Positions 4,188 to 61,946 of a stretch of DNA of 64,000 bases are shown in pieces. A program made the position numbers and the translations under genes. The first letter of the stretch is position 1. Each line of letters starts with the position of its first letter. Source of the stretch: a phage; sequence record PZ445446.1; one strand, given 5' to 3'. Below the pieces are notes generated by a model. That model was not told the origin of the DNA, did no database searches, and worked only from the letters and a program-made list of their open reading frames with translations.

Positions 4188-4613
4188 ATGATCTATGAAA
4201 TGCCAAAACTGATTCGTGACGATGCCCAAAACGCTCACACCATTATTATGGGCAAACGCATGGATATTATTTGTCATAAAGATTTCTGGGAAGGAAGTTA
4301 CTTCACAGAGTATTTTGGTAAACTGGACAATGGTCTGCTGATCCAGTTCTACACCGATGCGGAAAACAACATTCACTGGGAGTTCGAAACTGAAGATATC
4401 CATAAACTTTTCACCTTCCTCGGTATTAAGGTTGAGGCCAAGTTTGAAGAAGGTGAGTGCGACGATTGTGGATTCTATGAGGTAACAGATTTCTACCTTC
4501 CAAGTGGTAAAAATCTCTACTACGAAAGCCACTTCGGCAACTCAAATATGCCACAGGGTTGGGATGAGTTTTTGGAAATTGCAGAAGAGGAGCTGAAATA
4601 CCGTGATTATTGA
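4188..4613 (+). CDS. hypothetical protein
   Basis: 141 aa ORF; overlaps downstream gene start. Confidence 0.45.
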   Translation: MIYEMPKLIRDDAQNAHTIIMGKRMDIICHKDFWEGSYFTEYFGKLDNGLLIQFYTDAENNIHWEFETEDIHKLFTFLGIKVEAKFEEGECDDCGFYEVTDFYLPSGKNLYYESHFGNSNMPQGWDEFLEIAEEELKYRDY

Positions 4614-5061
4614 TACTGTAAAGGGAGATCTAATCTCCATTTTCAAGAAAGGGTCAGGCCACATGATCCACGGTTGTAACTGCTTTCACACAATGGGTGC
4701 AGGTATAGCGAAAGATATTGCCCGTGAGTTCCCTCAAGCACTGGCAGCCGACAAAGAGACTGCTTATGGTAATCTAGACAAGCTGGGTATGTTTTCTTGT
4801 TGGGAGCATTTTGCCAAGACCAGGGTCGTATATGGAATCAACCTGTATACCCAGTTCTACCCAGGGCCCAATGCTGAATACTTCTCAATCATGAAAGGTT
4901 TTGAGCGAGTCAACGAGGTATTCAAAGGTATGTCATTGCCGTTCTACATTCCTAAAATCGGATGCGGTATTGGAGGTCTAAAGTGGGAACATGTAGAAGA
5001 TGTAATTAATCTTGCAACCACAGATATTGATGTGGTTGTAGTAGAGTACAAAAAGTGTTGA
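4603..5061 (+). CDS. macro-domain-like protein (putative ADP-ribose binding/processing)
   Basis: 152 aa; HGCNC...MGAGIAKDIA and IPKIGCGIGG resemble macro-domain glycine-rich ADP-ribose binding loops. Confidence 0.4.
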   Translation: MIIDTVKGDLISIFKKGSGHMIHGCNCFHTMGAGIAKDIAREFPQALAADKETAYGNLDKLGMFSCWEHFAKTRVVYGINLYTQFYPGPNAEYFSIMKGFERVNEVFKGMSLPFYIPKIGCGIGGLKWEHVEDVINLATTDIDVVVVEYKKC

Positions 5062-52609: not shown

Positions 52610-53893
52610 TCATTCCAGAACCTCCCAAGTATCTGGGTTAACATTTCGGACGCAGATACCGACAGGGAATTGGTAGTTGTTGTCTTCTGTCCTTGCTTGA
52701 TATTTGAAGGTGACAAACTTGCCGATCATTTCCTGCATCCTGTCATAGCTACGCTCCTCGTGCGTGCCTTTCATCTTCATTTTAACAACAACACCCTCCT
52801 TGTCAACACAGATAAGAACACCTTCATCATTCTTATCTTTCTCAACGTCAATAACTTTCACCTCTGCGTCGTTGAACTTTTTCCATTTCAATGCTTCAGA
52901 TGTTCGCTGACCATACTCATACTTACCACAGAAGTTACGCATAATGGTACCTTCATATCCTTCAGACATAAATATACCAACAGACTCTTCGCACCGATCA
53001 ACTGTATATGCAAGCTCTGCATCAACAACCTTAATATGATCAAGCATCAAAGAAGAAATAGCACCATTTGCCTCCATAAGATCCTTACAGCGCCCAGACT
53101 CTGTTTCAGGATCCCACCACACCTTATCGCTAGGGATATCGAAAATATGATACTCTAAGTCGTAGCTGCAGTACCCTCCGTAACGCAAATCATCACGAAC
53201 AGGCTCAACATCAACAGGAATGTCCATCTTGTTGAAGTTTTTGTATGTTGCTAAACCTGCCTTAATCGCAGCCTGACGTCGTTTTTTATCTGCCTTGTAG
53301 TCTTTATCGATCTCGGCCTGAATTTCTTCCTGTGTGCGCCATCGTTTAGCAAGAGAAACTATTTTCTGCAGAGGCAGACCATGAATATAGAGCTCTCCGT
53401 CGAGCTGTTTAATCCCAGTGGTGAGGTGGAAAGAGCGAAGTTGCTCCAGAAGCTTTCCTTGAATAGGGTAGGACTTATTACCACGGGAAATAAATTTGGG
53501 CTCACCATTCTGGAAAACAACAAGTAGACGAAGGCCATCTAACTTACGCAAGATCCAGCAAGGTAATTTAAGAGCCTTGCCACGCTTCAGGTAGTCATGC
53601 ACCAGCATGGGTAAAAGGTCAACACCCTGCTCGCAATCTTCCATATTCTCAACATACCCCAGACGGACTTGTTTTTCCCACTTGCTAATAGCCTCAAGCT
53701 CGGCCTGTTGCTCAGCGGTAGTCTCGTTGGTACGACCTACGTTCTTAGGCGTGCATACCGTCTCTTTGTATTGCAGTTTACCATCAAGCTTGCCAAACTC
53801 TACGATAACCTTATCACCATCCGTGAATACTTTCCACTGTTGGTAGCTGCCATCTTTGTTCAGTGCGTACAGTGTTGTTTTGATCTGATGCAT
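52610..53893 (-). CDS. ATP-dependent DNA ligase
   Basis: 427 aa; adenylation motif I KLDGLR (KxDGxR). Confidence 0.65.
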   Translation of the reverse strand: MHQIKTTLYALNKDGSYQQWKVFTDGDKVIVEFGKLDGKLQYKETVCTPKNVGRTNETTAEQQAELEAISKWEKQVRLGYVENMEDCEQGVDLLPMLVHDYLKRGKALKLPCWILRKLDGLRLLVVFQNGEPKFISRGNKSYPIQGKLLEQLRSFHLTTGIKQLDGELYIHGLPLQKIVSLAKRWRTQEEIQAEIDKDYKADKKRRQAAIKAGLATYKNFNKMDIPVDVEPVRDDLRYGGYCSYDLEYHIFDIPSDKVWWDPETESGRCKDLMEANGAISSLMLDHIKVVDAELAYTVDRCEESVGIFMSEGYEGTIMRNFCGKYEYGQRTSEALKWKKFNDAEVKVIDVEKDKNDEGVLICVDKEGVVVKMKMKGTHEERSYDRMQEMIGKFVTFKYQARTEDNNYQFPVGICVRNVNPDTWEVLE

Positions 53894-54487: not shown

Positions 54488-54520
54488 AACAAGTAAAGCC
54501 GGGTAATCCCGGCTATGTTG

Positions 54521-55234
54521 TTAAATATACTCTGTTACATCCTTGAAGCTCGAAGGCTTCATGATCTTACCTTTGCTGTCAAGGAATATGATAACTTTAT
54601 TACCGTTGTAGAATTCTTCCTTAGCAACAAAACCTTCATATCGACCATCAAAGCGTCGCTCAAGATCTTTAATCTCCAACTCGATGAGTTGTTCAGCAGG
54701 CATATCTGCACTGGCACCGTGTGAATACTGTAGATGGTTGACCCGTGCAAACTTGCTGTCATTCGATTTGAGAACCTTACGCATCATCCCGCACACATCG
54801 CCGCGAAGCTGGAACAGCAAAGCTGTTGACAACTCTGCTAAGCGGTAAGCGGACGCTTTTTGCTTAGAGGTGTTTTTCGCAGCGATCAGTGTATCATAGA
54901 ACTCACCGATCTTGAACTTAAGACCCTGTGGATTATCAAACAGGTTTGACCACTTTTCGTGATTATCATTAACAAGATAAGCGGCATAACTTGTGACAAC
55001 GTGAAGATCGCAGGCCTCTTTTAGCAGGTGATCTCCGCCATCACCTTTCTCCAGCTCTTCCAAAACTTCATTGAACTCTTCCTCAATGAAGCTAAGCTGT
55101 AATTCGAATGGTGTGTATGATTTTTTCACTTTAGCTGCCACACGGTTCCAGTTTTCCACCCAGTTGGCAGACCAAAGGTAGTTTTCAGGTTGGGACAGTT
55201 TTTCCAGGTTGTCAATTAATTTGGTATTCAGCAT
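54521..55234 (-). CDS. hypothetical protein (possible MazG-like nucleotide pyrophosphohydrolase)
   Basis: 237 aa; FIEEEFNEVLEELEKGD...ACDLHVV is reminiscent of the MazG/HisE EExxE...E...D motif; assignment weak. Confidence 0.3.
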   Translation of the reverse strand: MLNTKLIDNLEKLSQPENYLWSANWVENWNRVAAKVKKSYTPFELQLSFIEEEFNEVLEELEKGDGGDHLLKEACDLHVVTSYAAYLVNDNHEKWSNLFDNPQGLKFKIGEFYDTLIAAKNTSKQKASAYRLAELSTALLFQLRGDVCGMMRKVLKSNDSKFARVNHLQYSHGASADMPAEQLIELEIKDLERRFDGRYEGFVAKEEFYNGNKVIIFLDSKGKIMKPSSFKDVTEYI

Positions 55235-55247
55235 TAAAGGTCTCCTT

Positions 55248-56009
55248 TTAAAGTTCCATAAAGTTTTCTACGGTCTCAATGAATGTTTTATCAGAGAAAG
55301 CATCAACCGCCCCGTTAAACCAAACTGGGATGCCGCGATCCTCATATTGGTAAATATCACTACGTGAAATACCATTCTCCCCTAGCTGCTGTGAGTCGTA
55401 TTTGTTAACGATCAGCAGTTTGGTTCCCTTATTGCAGGCAGGGAATAGCTCCCAGTTAAAATTGATAACTGTGTTGGAACACCCTACAAGGATAACCATA
55501 TCATTACTCGTAAGAGAAGTCAACAGGTCATACATGTCTGTATACTTCGGAGCTACTTCTCCGAAGAACACCACATTAGGTTTAACCCAGGTATACTTTC
55601 CTGCATCTACCTCAGAGTATCCAATGTCCTTAATGACGTCACTTCCTTCATCGTCCTCATAGACTATTTCTGGCAAATACCCGTGAACATGTAAAATATC
55701 TTCATGTTTTACACCAGCACGCTCCAGCAAATCATCTACATTGGTGGTAAGGTTGATCACACGACCAGACCAGCGGGAATACCACTCAGCGATCCGAAGA
55801 TGTGCAAGGTTAGGCTCAACACCGCCTAGAGCTACACGACGTGCATTGTAAAAGTCATGCACCTTGTAGTAGTTCTTGGCAAAGGTGTGGATGTTGCACA
55901 CCTCATCGATGCTGAAATTCTCCCACATTGCAGTGCTACCAGATCGGAAAGTGGGAATACCAGATTCAGCGCTCAAACCAGCACCGGAGATAATAATCAG
56001 TCGTCGCAT
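55248..56009 (-). CDS. Sir2-family NAD-dependent protein (sirtuin-like, no Zn module)
   Basis: 253 aa; GAGLSAESGIPTFR matches the sirtuin NAD-binding motif; HG catalytic dyad; no CxxC...CxxC zinc ribbon. Confidence 0.7.
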   Translation of the reverse strand: MRRLIIISGAGLSAESGIPTFRSGSTAMWENFSIDEVCNIHTFAKNYYKVHDFYNARRVALGGVEPNLAHLRIAEWYSRWSGRVINLTTNVDDLLERAGVKHEDILHVHGYLPEIVYEDDEGSDVIKDIGYSEVDAGKYTWVKPNVVFFGEVAPKYTDMYDLLTSLTSNDMVILVGCSNTVINFNWELFPACNKGTKLLIVNKYDSQQLGENGISRSDIYQYEDRGIPVWFNGAVDAFSDKTFIETVENFMEL

Positions 56010-56017
56010 AAGTGTCC

Positions 56018-56368
56018 TCAGTAGATGTTTTGTTTAATCTCTATTCCAAACTTTTTAAACGAGTCAGCTGCAAGCATGAATTTACGAGCCGCTGATGGGT
56101 TAGAAGTATGCACGAAAATCTTCACGTTGTCAACTACAGGGGGCTTACCAAATACAAATTTTTCCTCCAACATAGATAGGCAATCGTACCCTTCGAACAC
56201 CTCTCCAAGGTCGTTGTCCATGTGCCACTCAGAAACGCGTCTGTAGAGCTTTCCCCTATCGTTAATAAAATCTATAAACTCGGAGGAATTCTTTAGCCAA
56301 ATAGCGTCTGGGAGCCCATAATTTGACGGATCTCTCAAGTCATCCAGCCACACAATCAACTTCTTCAT
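56018..56368 (-). CDS. hypothetical protein
   Basis: 116 aa ORF between Sir2 and RNA ligase. Confidence 0.4.
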   Translation of the reverse strand: MKKLIVWLDDLRDPSNYGLPDAIWLKNSSEFIDFINDRGKLYRRVSEWHMDNDLGEVFEGYDCLSMLEEKFVFGKPPVVDNVKIFVHTSNPSAARKFMLAADSFKKFGIEIKQNIY

Positions 56369-57300
56369 TGCATATAGTTCTCGTTGTGGAAATAGTAATC
56401 AAGTATCTCACGGCGTTCCTGCTCCAGGAGGCAGTTCCACACATCTTCTGTGTAATTGTTACGAATGAAGTTTACCATGCCGTAAAACTCTTCGTCAACA
56501 CGTTTAAAGATATCATCATCCCAAATCCTCCAAGCTTTACCCCTCATTACGGCCTTCCGTGCCAGGTAGTATGGAGACTTGATCTTCAGCTGCAGGTCAT
56601 AAGGGTAGTAAGGCTTACGGATCATATACCCTTCGCCCCTTGTTTCTGCGGCTAATTCTTTTGCATAGCTGAACGGGATTTCACGCACAGTGTGAGGACG
56701 TTTTGCACCAAGGTATTTGGCAATCCCATCTAAAGCTGCTTCTGGTAGCATTATTCCAGAATCATTATATCTGCAACCTATCAAATATGCGCCATGGTCT
56801 TCTTGAACAATATGCGGATCTGAAGGGTGACAAATTTCAAACATGAATGTCATGTTTTCATTGCCCATAACCTTCTTGATAAGATCTAAATTACCACATT
56901 GCTCTTGGATGGTTTCCTTTGCAAGGTTACAATATGGAGAATCAAGAGACCCGGTTGTTGAGAACAATAGGTCACCTTTATGAGATGATACCACACCAAG
57001 GAATCCGTTCTTTTTCTCTACCGCAGTCACAAGCTTATTGTCAGGCAGGTTGGTGGAGTTTTCTCCCAAGTTAAACACTTTTGTGAAGGGCCATGCCACA
57101 ACATTTCCTTCATTACCTACAACAATGCCTCGGCACTCCAGTAAACGAGGGGACAAATGCCATAAATTGTTGTAAAATACTTTTCTAGCATATTTATAGA
57201 TCTTTAACCCGAGATCTGGGTAATACCTACTGGTTACAAGACCTTTGTCAACTAGGTCGTCTGCATTAAAATACTTCATCATACGTTCCTCATTTGTCAT
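56365..57300 (-). CDS. RNA ligase 1 (T4 RnlA-like)
   Basis: 311 aa; LECRGIVVGNEG, KVFNLGEN, AVEKKNGFL, FSTTGS align with T4 Rnl1 LECRGIMFEMDG, KFFNLNEN, LTKEDGSL, FKSKGS. Confidence 0.7.
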   Translation of the reverse strand: MTNEERMMKYFNADDLVDKGLVTSRYYPDLGLKIYKYARKVFYNNLWHLSPRLLECRGIVVGNEGNVVAWPFTKVFNLGENSTNLPDNKLVTAVEKKNGFLGVVSSHKGDLLFSTTGSLDSPYCNLAKETIQEQCGNLDLIKKVMGNENMTFMFEICHPSDPHIVQEDHGAYLIGCRYNDSGIMLPEAALDGIAKYLGAKRPHTVREIPFSYAKELAAETRGEGYMIRKPYYPYDLQLKIKSPYYLARKAVMRGKAWRIWDDDIFKRVDEEFYGMVNFIRNNYTEDVWNCLLEQERREILDYYFHNENYMQ

Positions 57301-57343
57301 TTTGTCAGTCTATCCTGCCACACAAATAACCTAGTGTCAACAC

Positions 57344-57808
57344 TTGAAATTAACAAAACAGTTAGGTATACTATCGTTGAAATTAAAACGGAGGGTCACT
57401 ATGTCTAAAATGCTATATATCGTGCGTGGTCTACCAGGGTCTGGCAAATCAACACTGGCAAATGCGCTATCTTTAGAGGGTCTGTATCCACATTTTGAGA
57501 ACGACATGTTCTGGTACGACGATGATGGAAATTACAACTGGGATGCAAGTAAAGTCACACTTGCAGCAAAATGGTGCAAAGATAACGTAGAAGATATGAT
57601 GCGTATGGGATACGACCGTATCGTGGTAAGTAATACGTTTACAAAAGAAAAATATGTGCAAAAATATATTGACATGGCAATCAGTTATGGGTATAGTTAT
57701 ACCGTAATCGTGGTTGAAAACCGCCACGGTAATAAAAGCATTCATGCTTCAGACGAGGTTGTGGATCGTATGGAACGCCAACTTAAAAACTGCATTAAAC
57801 TTAAATGA
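57344..57808 (+). CDS. P-loop polynucleotide kinase-like protein
   Basis: 154 aa; Walker A GLPGSGKST in a context like T4 Pnk N-terminus (GCPGSGKST); TTGAAA/TATACT promoter-like and ggaggg SD. Confidence 0.55.
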   Translation: MKLTKQLGILSLKLKRRVTMSKMLYIVRGLPGSGKSTLANALSLEGLYPHFENDMFWYDDDGNYNWDASKVTLAAKWCKDNVEDMMRMGYDRIVVSNTFTKEKYVQKYIDMAISYGYSYTVIVVENRHGNKSIHASDEVVDRMERQLKNCIKLK

Positions 57809-57815
57809 GGAATGT

Positions 57816-58370
57816 ATGAAATACTTTGTAACAAGCGACACACACTTTCTCCACCAGCGGGTCATGGAGTTCGATTCATGTCAAAAACACAGATCTCAGT
57901 ATGATCACAATCTTGACAGTATGAATGCGGGAATCATCGCCGAGTGGAACTCTGTTGTGTCACCTGCAGACACTGTGTTCCACTTGGGAGATATTGCGTG
58001 CACTAATGATAAGAATATCAACAACTTACTTCCAGATATTCTAAATATGTTGAACGGACATATTATTCTTGTTCGTGGCAACCATGACACAAGGACGACT
58101 GTCAGAATTATGAAAGAGTTCGGTCATGAGGTTGTAGATTATTACGAGCTTCGCCACAACAAGAATTTGATCTGTATGAGCCATTACCAATTTGCAAAGT
58201 GGAACAGAAAGCCTCACGGATCAGTCCAACTGTTCGGTCATGCTCACGGAACCACACAACAGTTGTTTGGCAGGCAGCTTGATGTCGGTTGGGATGTGTG
58301 GGGGAGACTCTTACCATTAGAAGAGGCATACCGTATTGCAATGAGTTTTGCTATTGACAGCGGGGAGTAA
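57816..58370 (+). CDS. metallophosphoesterase (calcineurin-like)
   Basis: Start at ATG 57816 (gagga SD) rather than track 57714; motifs SDTHF, GD, VRGNHD. Confidence 0.65.
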   Translation: MKYFVTSDTHFLHQRVMEFDSCQKHRSQYDHNLDSMNAGIIAEWNSVVSPADTVFHLGDIACTNDKNINNLLPDILNMLNGHIILVRGNHDTRTTVRIMKEFGHEVVDYYELRHNKNLICMSHYQFAKWNRKPHGSVQLFGHAHGTTQQLFGRQLDVGWDVWGRLLPLEEAYRIAMSFAIDSGE

Positions 58371-58417
58371 TCCCTGCTATTTTAAAGAAAATTGCCACAC
58401 AAGGAGAATCAGGAGAT

Positions 58418-58768
58418 ATGAAAGATGGGGATAAGCTGCTATATCTTAAAGTCCCCCTTGAAATACTGTCTATGTCAAAAGTTTTGAATGACACAACTGG
58501 AGAGGTTGTTGTTCTTGACTTGTATGACAAGATCGTATACTGCTACCTGCACAACTGGTATAAGCTTGGAGGAAATTCACGCTTCACACCCAGCACAAGG
58601 AAAATTGCAGCAGATGTTGGGATAAAGAAAACAAAAGCAGCAGCGTGCGTTAAAACTTTAGAGTGTGCAGGGGTGGTTGAAACATCCACACAAGGGAGAG
58701 GTAAAAGATGCACATTTTCCAAAGTTTTGCCACCAGAAGAAGTTATTCGGATGTCAACAACTGGTTAG
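58418..58768 (+). CDS. putative HTH DNA-binding protein
   Basis: 116 aa; HTH-like STRKIAADVGIKKTKAAACVKTLECAGVV; immediately upstream of palindromic iterons. Confidence 0.45.
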   Translation: MKDGDKLLYLKVPLEILSMSKVLNDTTGEVVVLDLYDKIVYCYLHNWYKLGGNSRFTPSTRKIAADVGIKKTKAAACVKTLECAGVVETSTQGRGKRCTFSKVLPPEEVIRMSTTG

Positions 58769-58840
58769 ACCAGTAAAAACTTAAATATCTGTACTATAAG
58801 GATTCGTATGTTTTATGTTCGCCATGGAACGGATACTATT

Positions 58841-58926
58841 AACTGTCCGTGATACGGACACTACTGTCCGTCACGCGGACACATCTGCCCGTAATACGGA
58901 CACTAACTGTCCGTGATACGGACACA
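58841..58926. repeat. four tandem palindromic ~21-bp operator/iteron-like sites
   Basis: aactgtccgtgatacggacac x2 (identical, first and fourth) plus two variants; each unit is an inverted repeat gtccg-N5-cggac; followed by ~120 bp AT-rich DNA. Confidence 0.65.
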
Positions 58927-59045
58927 TAAAGAATATAACTAAAATAACTAAATAATAAAAAATAAAAGATCTAGTACTTATGGTACTAAGTACATATACT
59001 TAACTTATGTAGAATATACTAGATCCTAAGTACCATGTTTTAAAT

Positions 59046-61766: not shown

Positions 61767-61863
61767 ACATACTGAGCTAGGTAAGCCCTTTGGCAAGGGC
61801 GAGGATTTTTAATCCTGAAAATAGACGAGGTAGTCGTTGAATACATAGGTGGTTCGATTCCAT
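61767..61863 (+). tRNA. atypical tRNA-like gene (UUU-like anticodon loop, ~30-nt extra region, no encoded CCA)
   Basis: Perfect 7-bp acceptor gctaggt/acctagc, normal D-arm (gccc-tttggcaa-gggc) and T-arm (ggtgg-ttcgatt-ccatc), anticodon-like loop tttttaa; ~30 nt between anticodon and T arms; 3' end is CCT. Confidence 0.4.
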
Positions 61864-61870
61864 CACCTAG

Positions 61871-61946
61871 CACCTTTTTGCTGATGTAGCACAATCGGTA
61901 GTGCAATTGATTTGTAATCAATAGGTTGTAGGTTCAAGTCCTGCCA
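61871..61946 (+). tRNA. tRNA-Thr (anticodon UGU)
   Basis: Acceptor gctgatg/catcagc, D-stem gcac/gtgc, anticodon stem attga/tcaat with loop tttgtaa, T-loop ttcaagt, CCA encoded. Confidence 0.75.

Follow-up and report, generated by a model that had tools for sequence, protein, structure and literature searches.

A probable RNA-repair module of six genes at the strand-switch point of an rV5-like coliphage genome

The 64,000-nucleotide stretch of phage DNA analysed here (record PZ445446.1, called the window below) carries at positions 54521-58370 a module of six genes. This module is real, its function is probably RNA repair, and its arrangement is already known (PMC9503650, and the product names of GenBank). 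The reading adopted in this work, with a probability of about 0.7, is that of a phage RNA heal-and-seal system composed of two back-to-back units placed where the genome switches its coding strand. The rightward unit comprises a small P-loop kinase and a separate metallophosphoesterase (MPE). The leftward unit comprises an RNA ligase of the T4 Rnl1 type, a cREC protein (cyclic-phosphate-processing receiver-like domain), a Sir2 protein and a MazG-like protein. A module limited to ligase, kinase and phosphoesterase had been proposed at 56365-58370 from the sequence alone (the original prediction). The three open reading frames (ORFs) were found as placed, with the ligase on the minus strand and the kinase and MPE on the plus strand. 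These three genes are real, but the module had been drawn too small, the cREC, Sir2 and MazG-like genes being co-operonic with the ligase.

A nucleotide comparison of the 4 kb surrounding the module identifies the window as Vequintavirus (Vequintavirinae, rV5-like coliphages). This region matches 119 phage records, the best of them being Escherichia phage A51.2, and in 117 of the 119 the match extends over at least 80% of its length, with 90-99.5% identity. The matching GenBank records already name an RNA ligase, a polynucleotide kinase (or AAA ATPase), a phosphoesterase and a Sir2-family deacetylase. The spacer between ligase and kinase, ~118 nucleotides (nt) long, is the strand-switch point of the genome, with a sign change of the GC skew at ~57-58 kb. 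It separates a long leftward block, which holds replication and nucleotide-metabolism genes, from a rightward block. A sigma-70-like site lies in this spacer and faces the kinase. This promoter-like signal (57344-57395, plus strand) consists of TTGAAA-17-TATACT at 57344-57372 and of a GGAGG ribosome-binding site at 57390-57394. Both elements are consensus matches only, and a PhagePromoter prediction stands at the same place in phage Gotham. The divergent arrangement announced beforehand is borne out.

The ligase (56365-57282, minus strand, ~305 amino acids (aa)) is a predicted ATP-dependent enzyme of the Rnl1 type (T4 RnlA-like) according to its Pfam, PHROG and T4 Rnl1 profile matches. The longest ORF, 56365-57300, encodes 311 aa, and translation likely starts at the ATG of 57282 or 57279, behind a GAGGA ribosome-binding site. 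The first of these positions agrees with the JeffSchatz annotation. The protein scores 55.3 bits against Pfam RNA_lig_T4_1 (PF09511; gathering cutoff 28.3, E 1.1e-14) and matches PHROG 562, the T4 RnlA family, with an E-value of 2.7e-66. Direct phmmer searches of the ligase and of the kinase against the PDB being uninformative, profiles built from homologues were used instead. The ligase profile, made of 24 homologues, matches the whole nucleotidyltransferase domain of T4 Rnl1 (2c5u, E 4.5e-13), and no other solved ligase of the PDB, fungal Trl1 included, is matched by it at E<=1. In these 24 homologues (311-aa numbering), R57, K74, F76, K96-x-N98-G99, E155, E223-G224, K239 and K241 are invariant. 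Nucleotidyltransferase motifs I, III, IV and V are present, including the motif I lysine within K96-K-N-G, and align with KEDG, FEF, EGYV and KIKS of T4 Rnl1. Those residues are essential in the T4 enzyme. By tblastn, the short form of the ligase is found in 755 phage records with Escherichia, Pseudomonas, Streptomyces, Vibrio, Klebsiella and other hosts. Taken at the level of sequence, the protein belongs to the Rnl1 family, as had been proposed, and is not an equivalog of T4 RnlA.

The kinase (57401-57808, plus strand) is a predicted minimal Pnk-type P-loop 5'-OH kinase of 135 aa, assigned by Pfam, PHROG, PDB profile and fold. Its ORF had been listed from a TTG at 57344, and that of the MPE from a TTG at 57714; both starts are artefacts of a mechanical ORF caller. 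The real kinase start is the ATG at 57401, 6 nt past the GGAGG, and the homologues start at the same Met. This length leaves no room for a phosphatase domain, so that the name "3'-phosphatase, 5'-polynucleotide kinase" found in several Vequintavirus records of GenBank is an over-annotation. The protein matches Pfam AAA_33 (40.8 bits, gathering cutoff 27, E 3.5e-10), PHROG 2071 (E 1.3e-54) and PHROG 505, "polynucleotide kinase" (E 3.6e-10). At least 7,981 related clusters exist at 90% identity, nearly all of them of 127-140 aa. The P-loop G10-LPGSGKST, D35, S-N-T (77-79) and E-N-R-H-G (106-110) are invariant in 28 homologues. The top PDB matches of the kinase profile with long alignments are all RNA or tRNA 5'-OH kinases: RazKIN (9d8a, 8e-7), Pnkp1 (4xrp, 2e-5), T4 Pnk (1ly1, 1.8e-4), PSTK and CthPnk (4gp7). 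D35 aligns with the catalytic Asp35 of T4 Pnk and with the "RDD" of Pnkp1, and S-N-T aligns with S-D-T of T4. Among the Mucorales enzymes, RazKIN is a proven tRNA-splicing RNA kinase in which the homologous Asp is essential, as is Asp36 of MciKIN, the homolog of D35 (PMC11571804). The AF2 model of the phage kinase (pLDDT 85) finds CthPnk (4gp6) as its top Foldseek match. TM-scores reach 0.62-0.67 for T4 Pnk, CthPnk, Pnkp1, PSTK and 2rhm, a putative kinase of unknown function, and 0.45-0.57 for nucleotide and sugar kinases, the margin between these and the Pnk type being modest. By profile and by predicted fold, the protein therefore groups with the RNA and polynucleotide 5'-OH kinases, in line with the T4 Pnk-like kinase that had been called. 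This evidence favours a polynucleotide kinase even if, taken alone, it is not decisive.

The MPE (57816-58370, plus strand, 184 aa) starts at the ATG of 57816, as in its homologues, 7 nt past the kinase stop codon. Pfam, PHROG 547 (E 1.3e-51), the PDB and fold comparison describe it as a stand-alone binuclear MPE of the aq_1665 clade. It scores 29 bits against Metallophos_2 (cutoff 27) and 27.9 against Metallophos (cutoff 21.5). Ligase, kinase and MPE thus all pass the Pfam gathering scores, a check that the original prediction had itself suggested. By sequence, the MPE matches Aquifex aeolicus aq_1665 in the PDB (1xm7, E 1.7e-10). All seven metal ligands of the binuclear site (D8, H10, D59, N89, H123, H142 and H144) are intact and, like H90, invariant in 35 homologues; they belong to the motifs DxH, GD, GNH[DE], H and GHxH. 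The separate calcineurin-like enzyme that had been announced is thus found. With the AF2 model (pLDDT 95.8), Foldseek ranks 1xm7 first (3.7e-8, TM 0.67), followed by MJ0936, Mre11, LpxH and GpdQ. Neither lambda phosphatase nor CthPnkp appears among the best 50 Foldseek matches or among the phmmer matches to the PDB at E<=1. These comparisons of sequence and model place the protein outside the Pnkp/lambda-phosphatase clade, and the MPE is not an orthologue of the Pnkp phosphatase. A protein phosphatase, which had been named beforehand as one of the findings that would overturn the proposal, was considered and rejected: the GDxxDRG and GNHE signatures of the PPP type are lacking, and no PPP-family member is present among the best 50 fold matches. 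The MPE family counts 25,503 representatives at 50% identity (E<=0.001), a very large number, and its members mostly stand alone. Seven longer proteins, scanned among the best 150 MPE representatives for a fusion with a kinase or ligase, contained no domain of either kind.

The heal-and-seal reading of these three genes is well supported by gene context, because kinase, MPE and a ligase of the Rnl1 or Rnl2 type recur side by side, on one strand, in other phages. To quantify this linkage, 80 IMG/VR loci were retrieved with the kinase profile and scanned with the profiles built in this work, neighbours being counted within 10 kb. An MPE is found in 53 of these loci, in many cases directly adjacent to the kinase, and an RNA ligase in 46 (Rnl1-type in 25, Rnl2-type in 27). 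All the MPE and ligase matches lie on the kinase strand, whereas the share for the long ORFs of these loci taken together is 79%. When the kinases are grouped at 80% identity, 30 of the 46 resulting clusters have an MPE, 29 a ligase and 25 both. Homologues of cREC, Sir2 and the MazG-like protein were detected in none of the 80 loci, and a homologue of the rV5-type DNA ligase in three. The proposal that kinase, phosphatase and ligase form a functional set is strengthened by gene linkage across many unrelated phages; the enzymatic activities, the order of the steps and tRNA as the target are inferred.

Individual loci show the arrangement of these genes. In KP12-like Klebsiella phages, the order on a single strand is MPE, two small genes, then ligase-cREC-kinase-Sir2-DNA ligase. 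One of these loci (L003) carries a MazG-like homologue ~2.3 kb downstream of the module, with a faint Pfam PRA-PH match. A contiguous MPE-ligase-kinase cluster lacking cREC and Sir2 is seen in a 91-kb environmental contig and in the Pseudomonas phages phiPsa397 (Otagovirus, locus L091) and LCK69 (Pakpunavirus, locus L092). In the last two, the genes labelled "Phosphohydrolase (MutT/nudix family protein)" are mislabelled MPEs of the aq_1665 type (L091, 4058-4768, E 6e-59; L092, 3460-4023, MPE profile E 2e-58). A 78-kb contig combines a PolyA_pol-family nucleotidyltransferase with Rnl1, MPE and kinase, in this order. In freshwater phages, kinase and MPE genes overlap and an Rnl2-type ligase (PF09414) lies 1.8 kb downstream. 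PHROG 8238 is matched at its N-terminus (positions 2-109) by the kinase and at its C-terminus (440-686) by the ligase; these matches indicate fused kinase-ligase proteins, and this PHROG is the sole evidence of fusion. Judged by these gene neighbourhoods, kinase, MPE and RNA ligase appear as a recurrent core in which the ligase family is interchangeable, the cREC-Sir2-MazG-like trio appearing as an addition in the rV5 and KP12 lineages. Since cREC and Sir2 are absent both from the 80 environmental loci and from the Pseudomonas MPE-ligase-kinase loci, the core would work without them.

A separate observation concerns two large environmental phage contigs, in which a protein of 403-414 aa is encoded directly after the kinase-MPE pair (L004, 9082-10326; L005, 7109-8320). 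These proteins were considered as ligases and set aside, having no informative Pfam match. They may be an unrecognised partner of the pair.

In the window, the ligase is the first gene of a compact leftward operon. The start codon of cREC (56018-56368, minus strand, 116 aa) overlaps the ligase stop codon; this protein is recognized by Pfam cREC_REC (PF20274, 1.3e-14) and by PHROG 1479 (7.5e-35). Sir2 (55248-56009, minus strand, 253 aa, class III, CobB/SIRT5-like) follows 8 nt further, with a Pfam SIR2 match of 5.6e-27 and E. coli CobB (1s5p, E 3.6e-21) as its best PDB match. It keeps GAGxSxESGIPTFR, the catalytic HG and FYNARR, which contains Y-x-x-R, and the positions of the zinc-binding Cys residues of CobB are replaced. 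In CobB and SIRT5, Y-x-x-R binds an anionic group. By its motifs, the phage protein is thus best described as a class III-like sirtuin that lacks the zinc-binding cysteines. The last gene of the operon, 13 nt past Sir2, encodes a MazG-like nucleotide pyrophosphohydrolase (54521-55234, minus strand, 237 aa). It is assigned by PHROG 671 (1.1e-21), no match being obtained in Pfam, NCBIfam or the PDB sequences. A G+C-rich terminator-like hairpin (54497-54514), found by consensus scan, closes the ligase-cREC-Sir2-MazG-like unit, and a terminator is predicted at the equivalent place in phage Gotham. No Tpt1/KptA homologue was found among the module proteins in the Pfam scan. The presence of these three genes beside the ligase implies that the 3' end is also, or instead, handled by an NAD-dependent route.

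The proposed pathway would begin with a host metal-independent ribonuclease, either an anticodon nuclease or a HEPN-type effector, cutting tRNA or another RNA to leave a 2',3'-cyclic phosphate and a 5'-OH. Using an NTP as donor, the kinase would phosphorylate the 5'-OH, Asp35 being the general base, and the MPE would strip the 2',3'-cyclic, 3' or 2' phosphate to yield a 3'-OH that can be ligated. The ligase, adenylylated on Lys96, would then pass AMP to the 5'-phosphate and seal the cut RNA. From the same transcript as the ligase, cREC, Sir2 and the MazG-like protein would supply an accessory NAD-linked branch, serving either as a second route to resolve the cyclic or 2'-phosphate end or for clearing ADP-ribose by-products. 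The same functional reading has been published for phage V5 (PMC9503650, section 3.7.3; PMC7824862, section 3.4.9), and the parts played by cREC, kinases and calcineurin-like phosphoesterases when phages repair RNA have been described in general terms (PMC7824862).

The logic of this pathway is shared with the tRNA restriction-repair system of T4, in which Pnkp (pseT) and Rnl1 (gp63) counter the PrrC anticodon nuclease: a 5' kinase, a 3'-end phosphoesterase and a ligase of the Rnl1 family. Both the phage kinase and T4 Pnk have a P-loop, Asp35 as catalytic residue and an S-[DN]-T motif. The position aligned with Arg38, however, is aromatic in the phage kinase, and the T4 kinase domain is ~30 residues longer. 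Likewise, the phage ligase is ~70 aa shorter than T4 Rnl1 (~305 aa against 374). End healing is carried by one protein in T4 and by two in the phage of the window, which uses a binuclear MPE whereas the phosphatase of T4 Pnkp is a DxDxT/HAD acylphosphatase (PMC3592404). The Pnkp of Clostridium thermocellum and the Pnkp1/Rnl/Hen1 system offer the same set of a Pnk-type kinase, a binuclear MPE and an adenylyltransferase ligase. CthPnk is the top Foldseek match of the phage kinase and Pnkp1 its second-best profile match. CthPnkp, however, unites kinase, MPE and ligase in a single polypeptide, whereas three separate proteins are found in the window. In addition, the phage ligase is of the Rnl1 type and not of the Pnkp ligase type, Hen1 is absent from the module, and the MPE belongs to another clade, its motif II lacking the DRG extension and its motif III being GNHD. 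The likeness to bacterial Pnkp that had been put forward thus holds for function and layout and fails for orthology, the MPE being of the aq_1665 clade and not of the Pnkp/lambda-phosphatase type. The closest solved relative of this MPE, by sequence and by fold, is indeed aq_1665 (1xm7), a structural genomics entry.

A further parallel is provided by the stand-alone tRNA-splicing enzymes KIN, LIG and Tpt1 of Mucorales (Ghosh et al. 2024, PMC11571804, PMC10946426). In both cases, the RNA 5'-OH kinases are small and stand-alone, and healing and sealing are distributed over separate proteins. RazKIN is the best PDB sequence match of the phage kinase family (8e-7), over ~105 gapped positions. Fungal ligase structures, however, are not matched by the phage ligase, and Sir2 has been put forward as an analogue of Tpt1 as a proposal only. 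The closest precedent is the sirtuin-centred RNA-repair neighbourhood "type 2", whose prototypes are Escherichia phage V5 and Proteus phage Mydo (Iyer, Burroughs, Anantharaman and Aravind 2022, Viruses 14:1977, PMC9503650). It comes from the same phage group, and all six of its genes (T4-like tRNA ligase, cREC, sirtuin, nucleotide kinase, MazG-superfamily pyrophosphatase and calcineurin-like phosphoesterase) are present here. No essential difference was found, and the window is a member of this neighbourhood, at 54521-58370. That paper calls the phosphoesterase "occasional" (PMC9503650), whereas the present survey points to kinase, MPE and ligase as the widespread core and to cREC, Sir2 and MazG as lineage-specific.

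Several observations weigh against the heal-and-seal reading. The ligase fails as a T4 RnlA equivalog, with 38.6 bits against NCBIfam TIGR02308 for a cutoff of 242.25. Its alignment to T4 Rnl1 ends at about T4 residue 249, and the C-terminal ~65 aa of the phage protein match nothing. The C-terminal domain of T4 Rnl1, for which no match is found here, is tied to tRNA specificity. In T4 Pnk, R38 and R126 contact the acceptor and the NTP. The position aligned with Arg38 is aromatic (F/W/Y) in the phage kinase family; the invariant R108 of E-N-R-H-G could correspond to R126, but it lies outside the aligned stretch. The kinase resembles known polynucleotide kinases only weakly (E 1e-7 to 1e-3, TM 0.6-0.67), with nucleotide and sugar kinases close behind. 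The MPE has no specific similarity to CthPnkp or lambda phosphatase, both proven healers of RNA ends, and its sole close relative, aq_1665, has no assigned function, so that this match is uninformative on the substrate. Binuclear MPEs are able to heal RNA ends bearing a 2',3'-cyclic phosphate, the combined 2',3'-cyclic phosphodiesterase and 2'/3'-phosphomonoesterase activity on such ends being demonstrated for CthPnkp and lambda phosphatase only (PMC2190708). Moreover, how the 3'-end work is divided between cREC/Sir2 and the MPE is uncertain when both are present. No biochemical or genetic study of the module proteins was found in the searched literature on RNA repair in Vequintavirinae. Finally, retron Eco2 still restricts Vequintavirinae (PMC12916289, a study with a tRNA cleavage assay among its methods), so that the module does not protect against every such system.

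The alternative that comes closest to the heal-and-seal reading differs from it only in the chemistry of the 3' end, and both routes may coexist. This is the fungal/plant-style pathway with a 2'-phosphate junction proposed by Iyer et al. (PMC9503650, section 3.7.3), which is considered here rather unlikely. In this scheme, cREC would open the 2',3'-cyclic phosphate to a 2'-phosphate while the kinase acts on the 5' end. The ligase would seal the 3'-OH,2'-PO4 / 5'-PO4 nick, and the 2'-phosphate left at the junction would be taken off by Sir2 at the expense of NAD+, as Tpt1/KptA does. The ADP-ribose cyclic phosphate would be degraded by the MazG-like protein, the MPE or cREC, the MPE being then a clean-up enzyme and not a 3'-end healer. 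The tight ligase-cREC-Sir2-MazG-like operon, with its start/stop overlap and terminal hairpin, fits this scheme, as do the colinear ligase-cREC-kinase-Sir2 genes of KP12-like phages and the presence in relatives of nearby genes of the NAD-salvage type (NAPRTase-like with PRPP-synthetase-like), NADAR or Macro. Sir2 itself retains its catalytic HG, its NAD motifs and the Y-x-x-R of class III, which points in the same direction. Motif I of the ligase is K-x-N-G, not the K-x-D-G of T4, and K-x-N-G is also the motif I of fungal Trl1. The ligase profile nevertheless matches T4 Rnl1 and no fungal Trl1 structure at E<=1, and neither cREC nor Sir2 occurs in any of the 80 environmental kinase loci or in the Pseudomonas MPE-ligase-kinase loci. 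In addition, no sirtuin is known to act on an RNA 2'-phosphate, and the activity of cREC is predicted only (PMC9503650).

Two other explanations remove RNA repair from the picture. The genes could be unrelated neighbours, the kinase acting on nucleotides or small molecules, the MPE on cyclic-nucleotide immune signals or nucleotides, and Sir2 serving as a protein deacylase or NADase in host takeover. AAA_33 is indeed a broad family, nucleotide and sugar kinases come just behind in the fold search, MPEs of the MJ0936, GpdQ and LpxH types act on small molecules, the MPE family is huge and mostly stand-alone, and Iyer et al. speak only of a "nucleotide kinase" (PMC9503650). This explanation is improbable in view of the recurrence, in many lineages, of kinase, MPE and RNA ligase as neighbours on one strand, of the alignment of the kinase catalytic Asp with that of T4 Pnk, of long PDB matches that are, for the best of them, all RNA/tRNA kinases, and of the kinase-ligase fusion indicated by PHROG 8238. 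Even less credit is given to DNA end repair, in which the ATP-dependent DNA ligase encoded at 52610-53893, a few kb from the module, would seal DNA nicks after kinase and MPE had healed their 5'-OH/3'-phosphate ends; the RNA ligase would be a bystander or would act in tail-fibre attachment, the other role of T4 gp63. A DNA ligase also lies near the module in the Klebsiella, environmental and Pseudomonas loci L002, L006, L091 and L092, and the MPE has a weak NCBIfam match (20.5 bits) to PdeM, a ligase-associated MPE. Pnk-family kinases commonly accept DNA, as MciKIN does (PMC11571804). The PdeM score, however, is far below its cutoff of 150, the rV5-type DNA ligase occurs in 3 of the 80 kinase loci against 46 for an RNA ligase, and the kinase-MPE pair partners two distinct families of RNA ligases.

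Within the heal-and-seal reading, a bolder and quite tentative proposal is that the pair formed by the kinase and the aq_1665-type MPE, a "split Pnkp", might be the main RNA end-healing cassette of phages. To this cassette, the rV5-like lineage might have added its zinc-less sirtuin as an NAD+-using analogue of Tpt1 acting on the RNA 2'-phosphate, giving two parallel routes for the 3' end. The sirtuin part of this proposal appeared in print in 2022 (PMC9503650). If true, the sirtuin superfamily would gain an activity, on RNA 2'-phosphate, that is new to it. Should the module work as described, it would provide rV5-like phages, which serve in phage therapy and are part of the BASEL reference collection, with a counter-defence against bacterial systems that cut tRNA or mRNA. 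The genes being already named and the neighbourhood already described, the value left in this finding lies in biochemistry. Since phage metagenomes contain the kinase-MPE pair in great abundance and none of its members is characterised, a single set of enzyme assays would annotate thousands of genes.

Further genes related to NAD and ADP-ribose metabolism were noted. NAPRTase/NAMPT-like and PRPP-synthetase-like genes lie a few kb from the ligase-kinase genes in Klebsiella, Pseudomonas and environmental loci (L002/L003, L006, L091 and L092). They resemble the gene pair used by phages for NAD+ reconstitution. In the window, a Macro-like ORF of 152 aa (4603-5061, plus strand) is 36% identical to a Macro-domain protein encoded near the ligase-kinase pair of the environmental contig L006, and such a domain could process ADP-ribose phosphate products. 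It was the sole match when NAPRTase, PRPP-synthetase-like, NADAR and HD homologues were also searched for by tblastn in the 64-kb window.

A tRNA of 97 nt is encoded 3.4 kb downstream of the kinase-MPE pair (61776-61872, plus strand). ARAGORN assigns it no identity and reports a 4-nt anticodon. Aligned with the Rfam tRNA model, it has the anticodon UUU (Lys) and 26 inserted nt in its variable region, which are able to fold into a short hairpin. It is listed as tRNA-Lys in one GenBank record and left out of another; such a long extra arm is odd for a tRNA-Lys. As tRNA-Lys(UUU) is the target of PrrC and PARIS, this molecule might be a nuclease-resistant replacement tRNA. The idea of a phage tRNA intron as the true substrate of the ligase was rejected, the 26 additional nt being in the variable region, outside the anticodon loop.

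Among the public records, 18 that are titled "Campylobacter phage" match the region 55000-59000 at 90-99% identity, the host being given as Campylobacter jejuni in 16 of them. One of these phages, C7, is 98.4% identical across the ligase. This host assignment looks doubtful. In the window, the gene that follows the MPE (58418-58768, plus strand) encodes a small helix-turn-helix (HTH) protein assigned to DUF6945/HTH_36 and to PHROG 12838, "replication initiation protein". It has a promoter-like site of its own at 58354-58383, and its product is labelled as a transcriptional regulator in the records.

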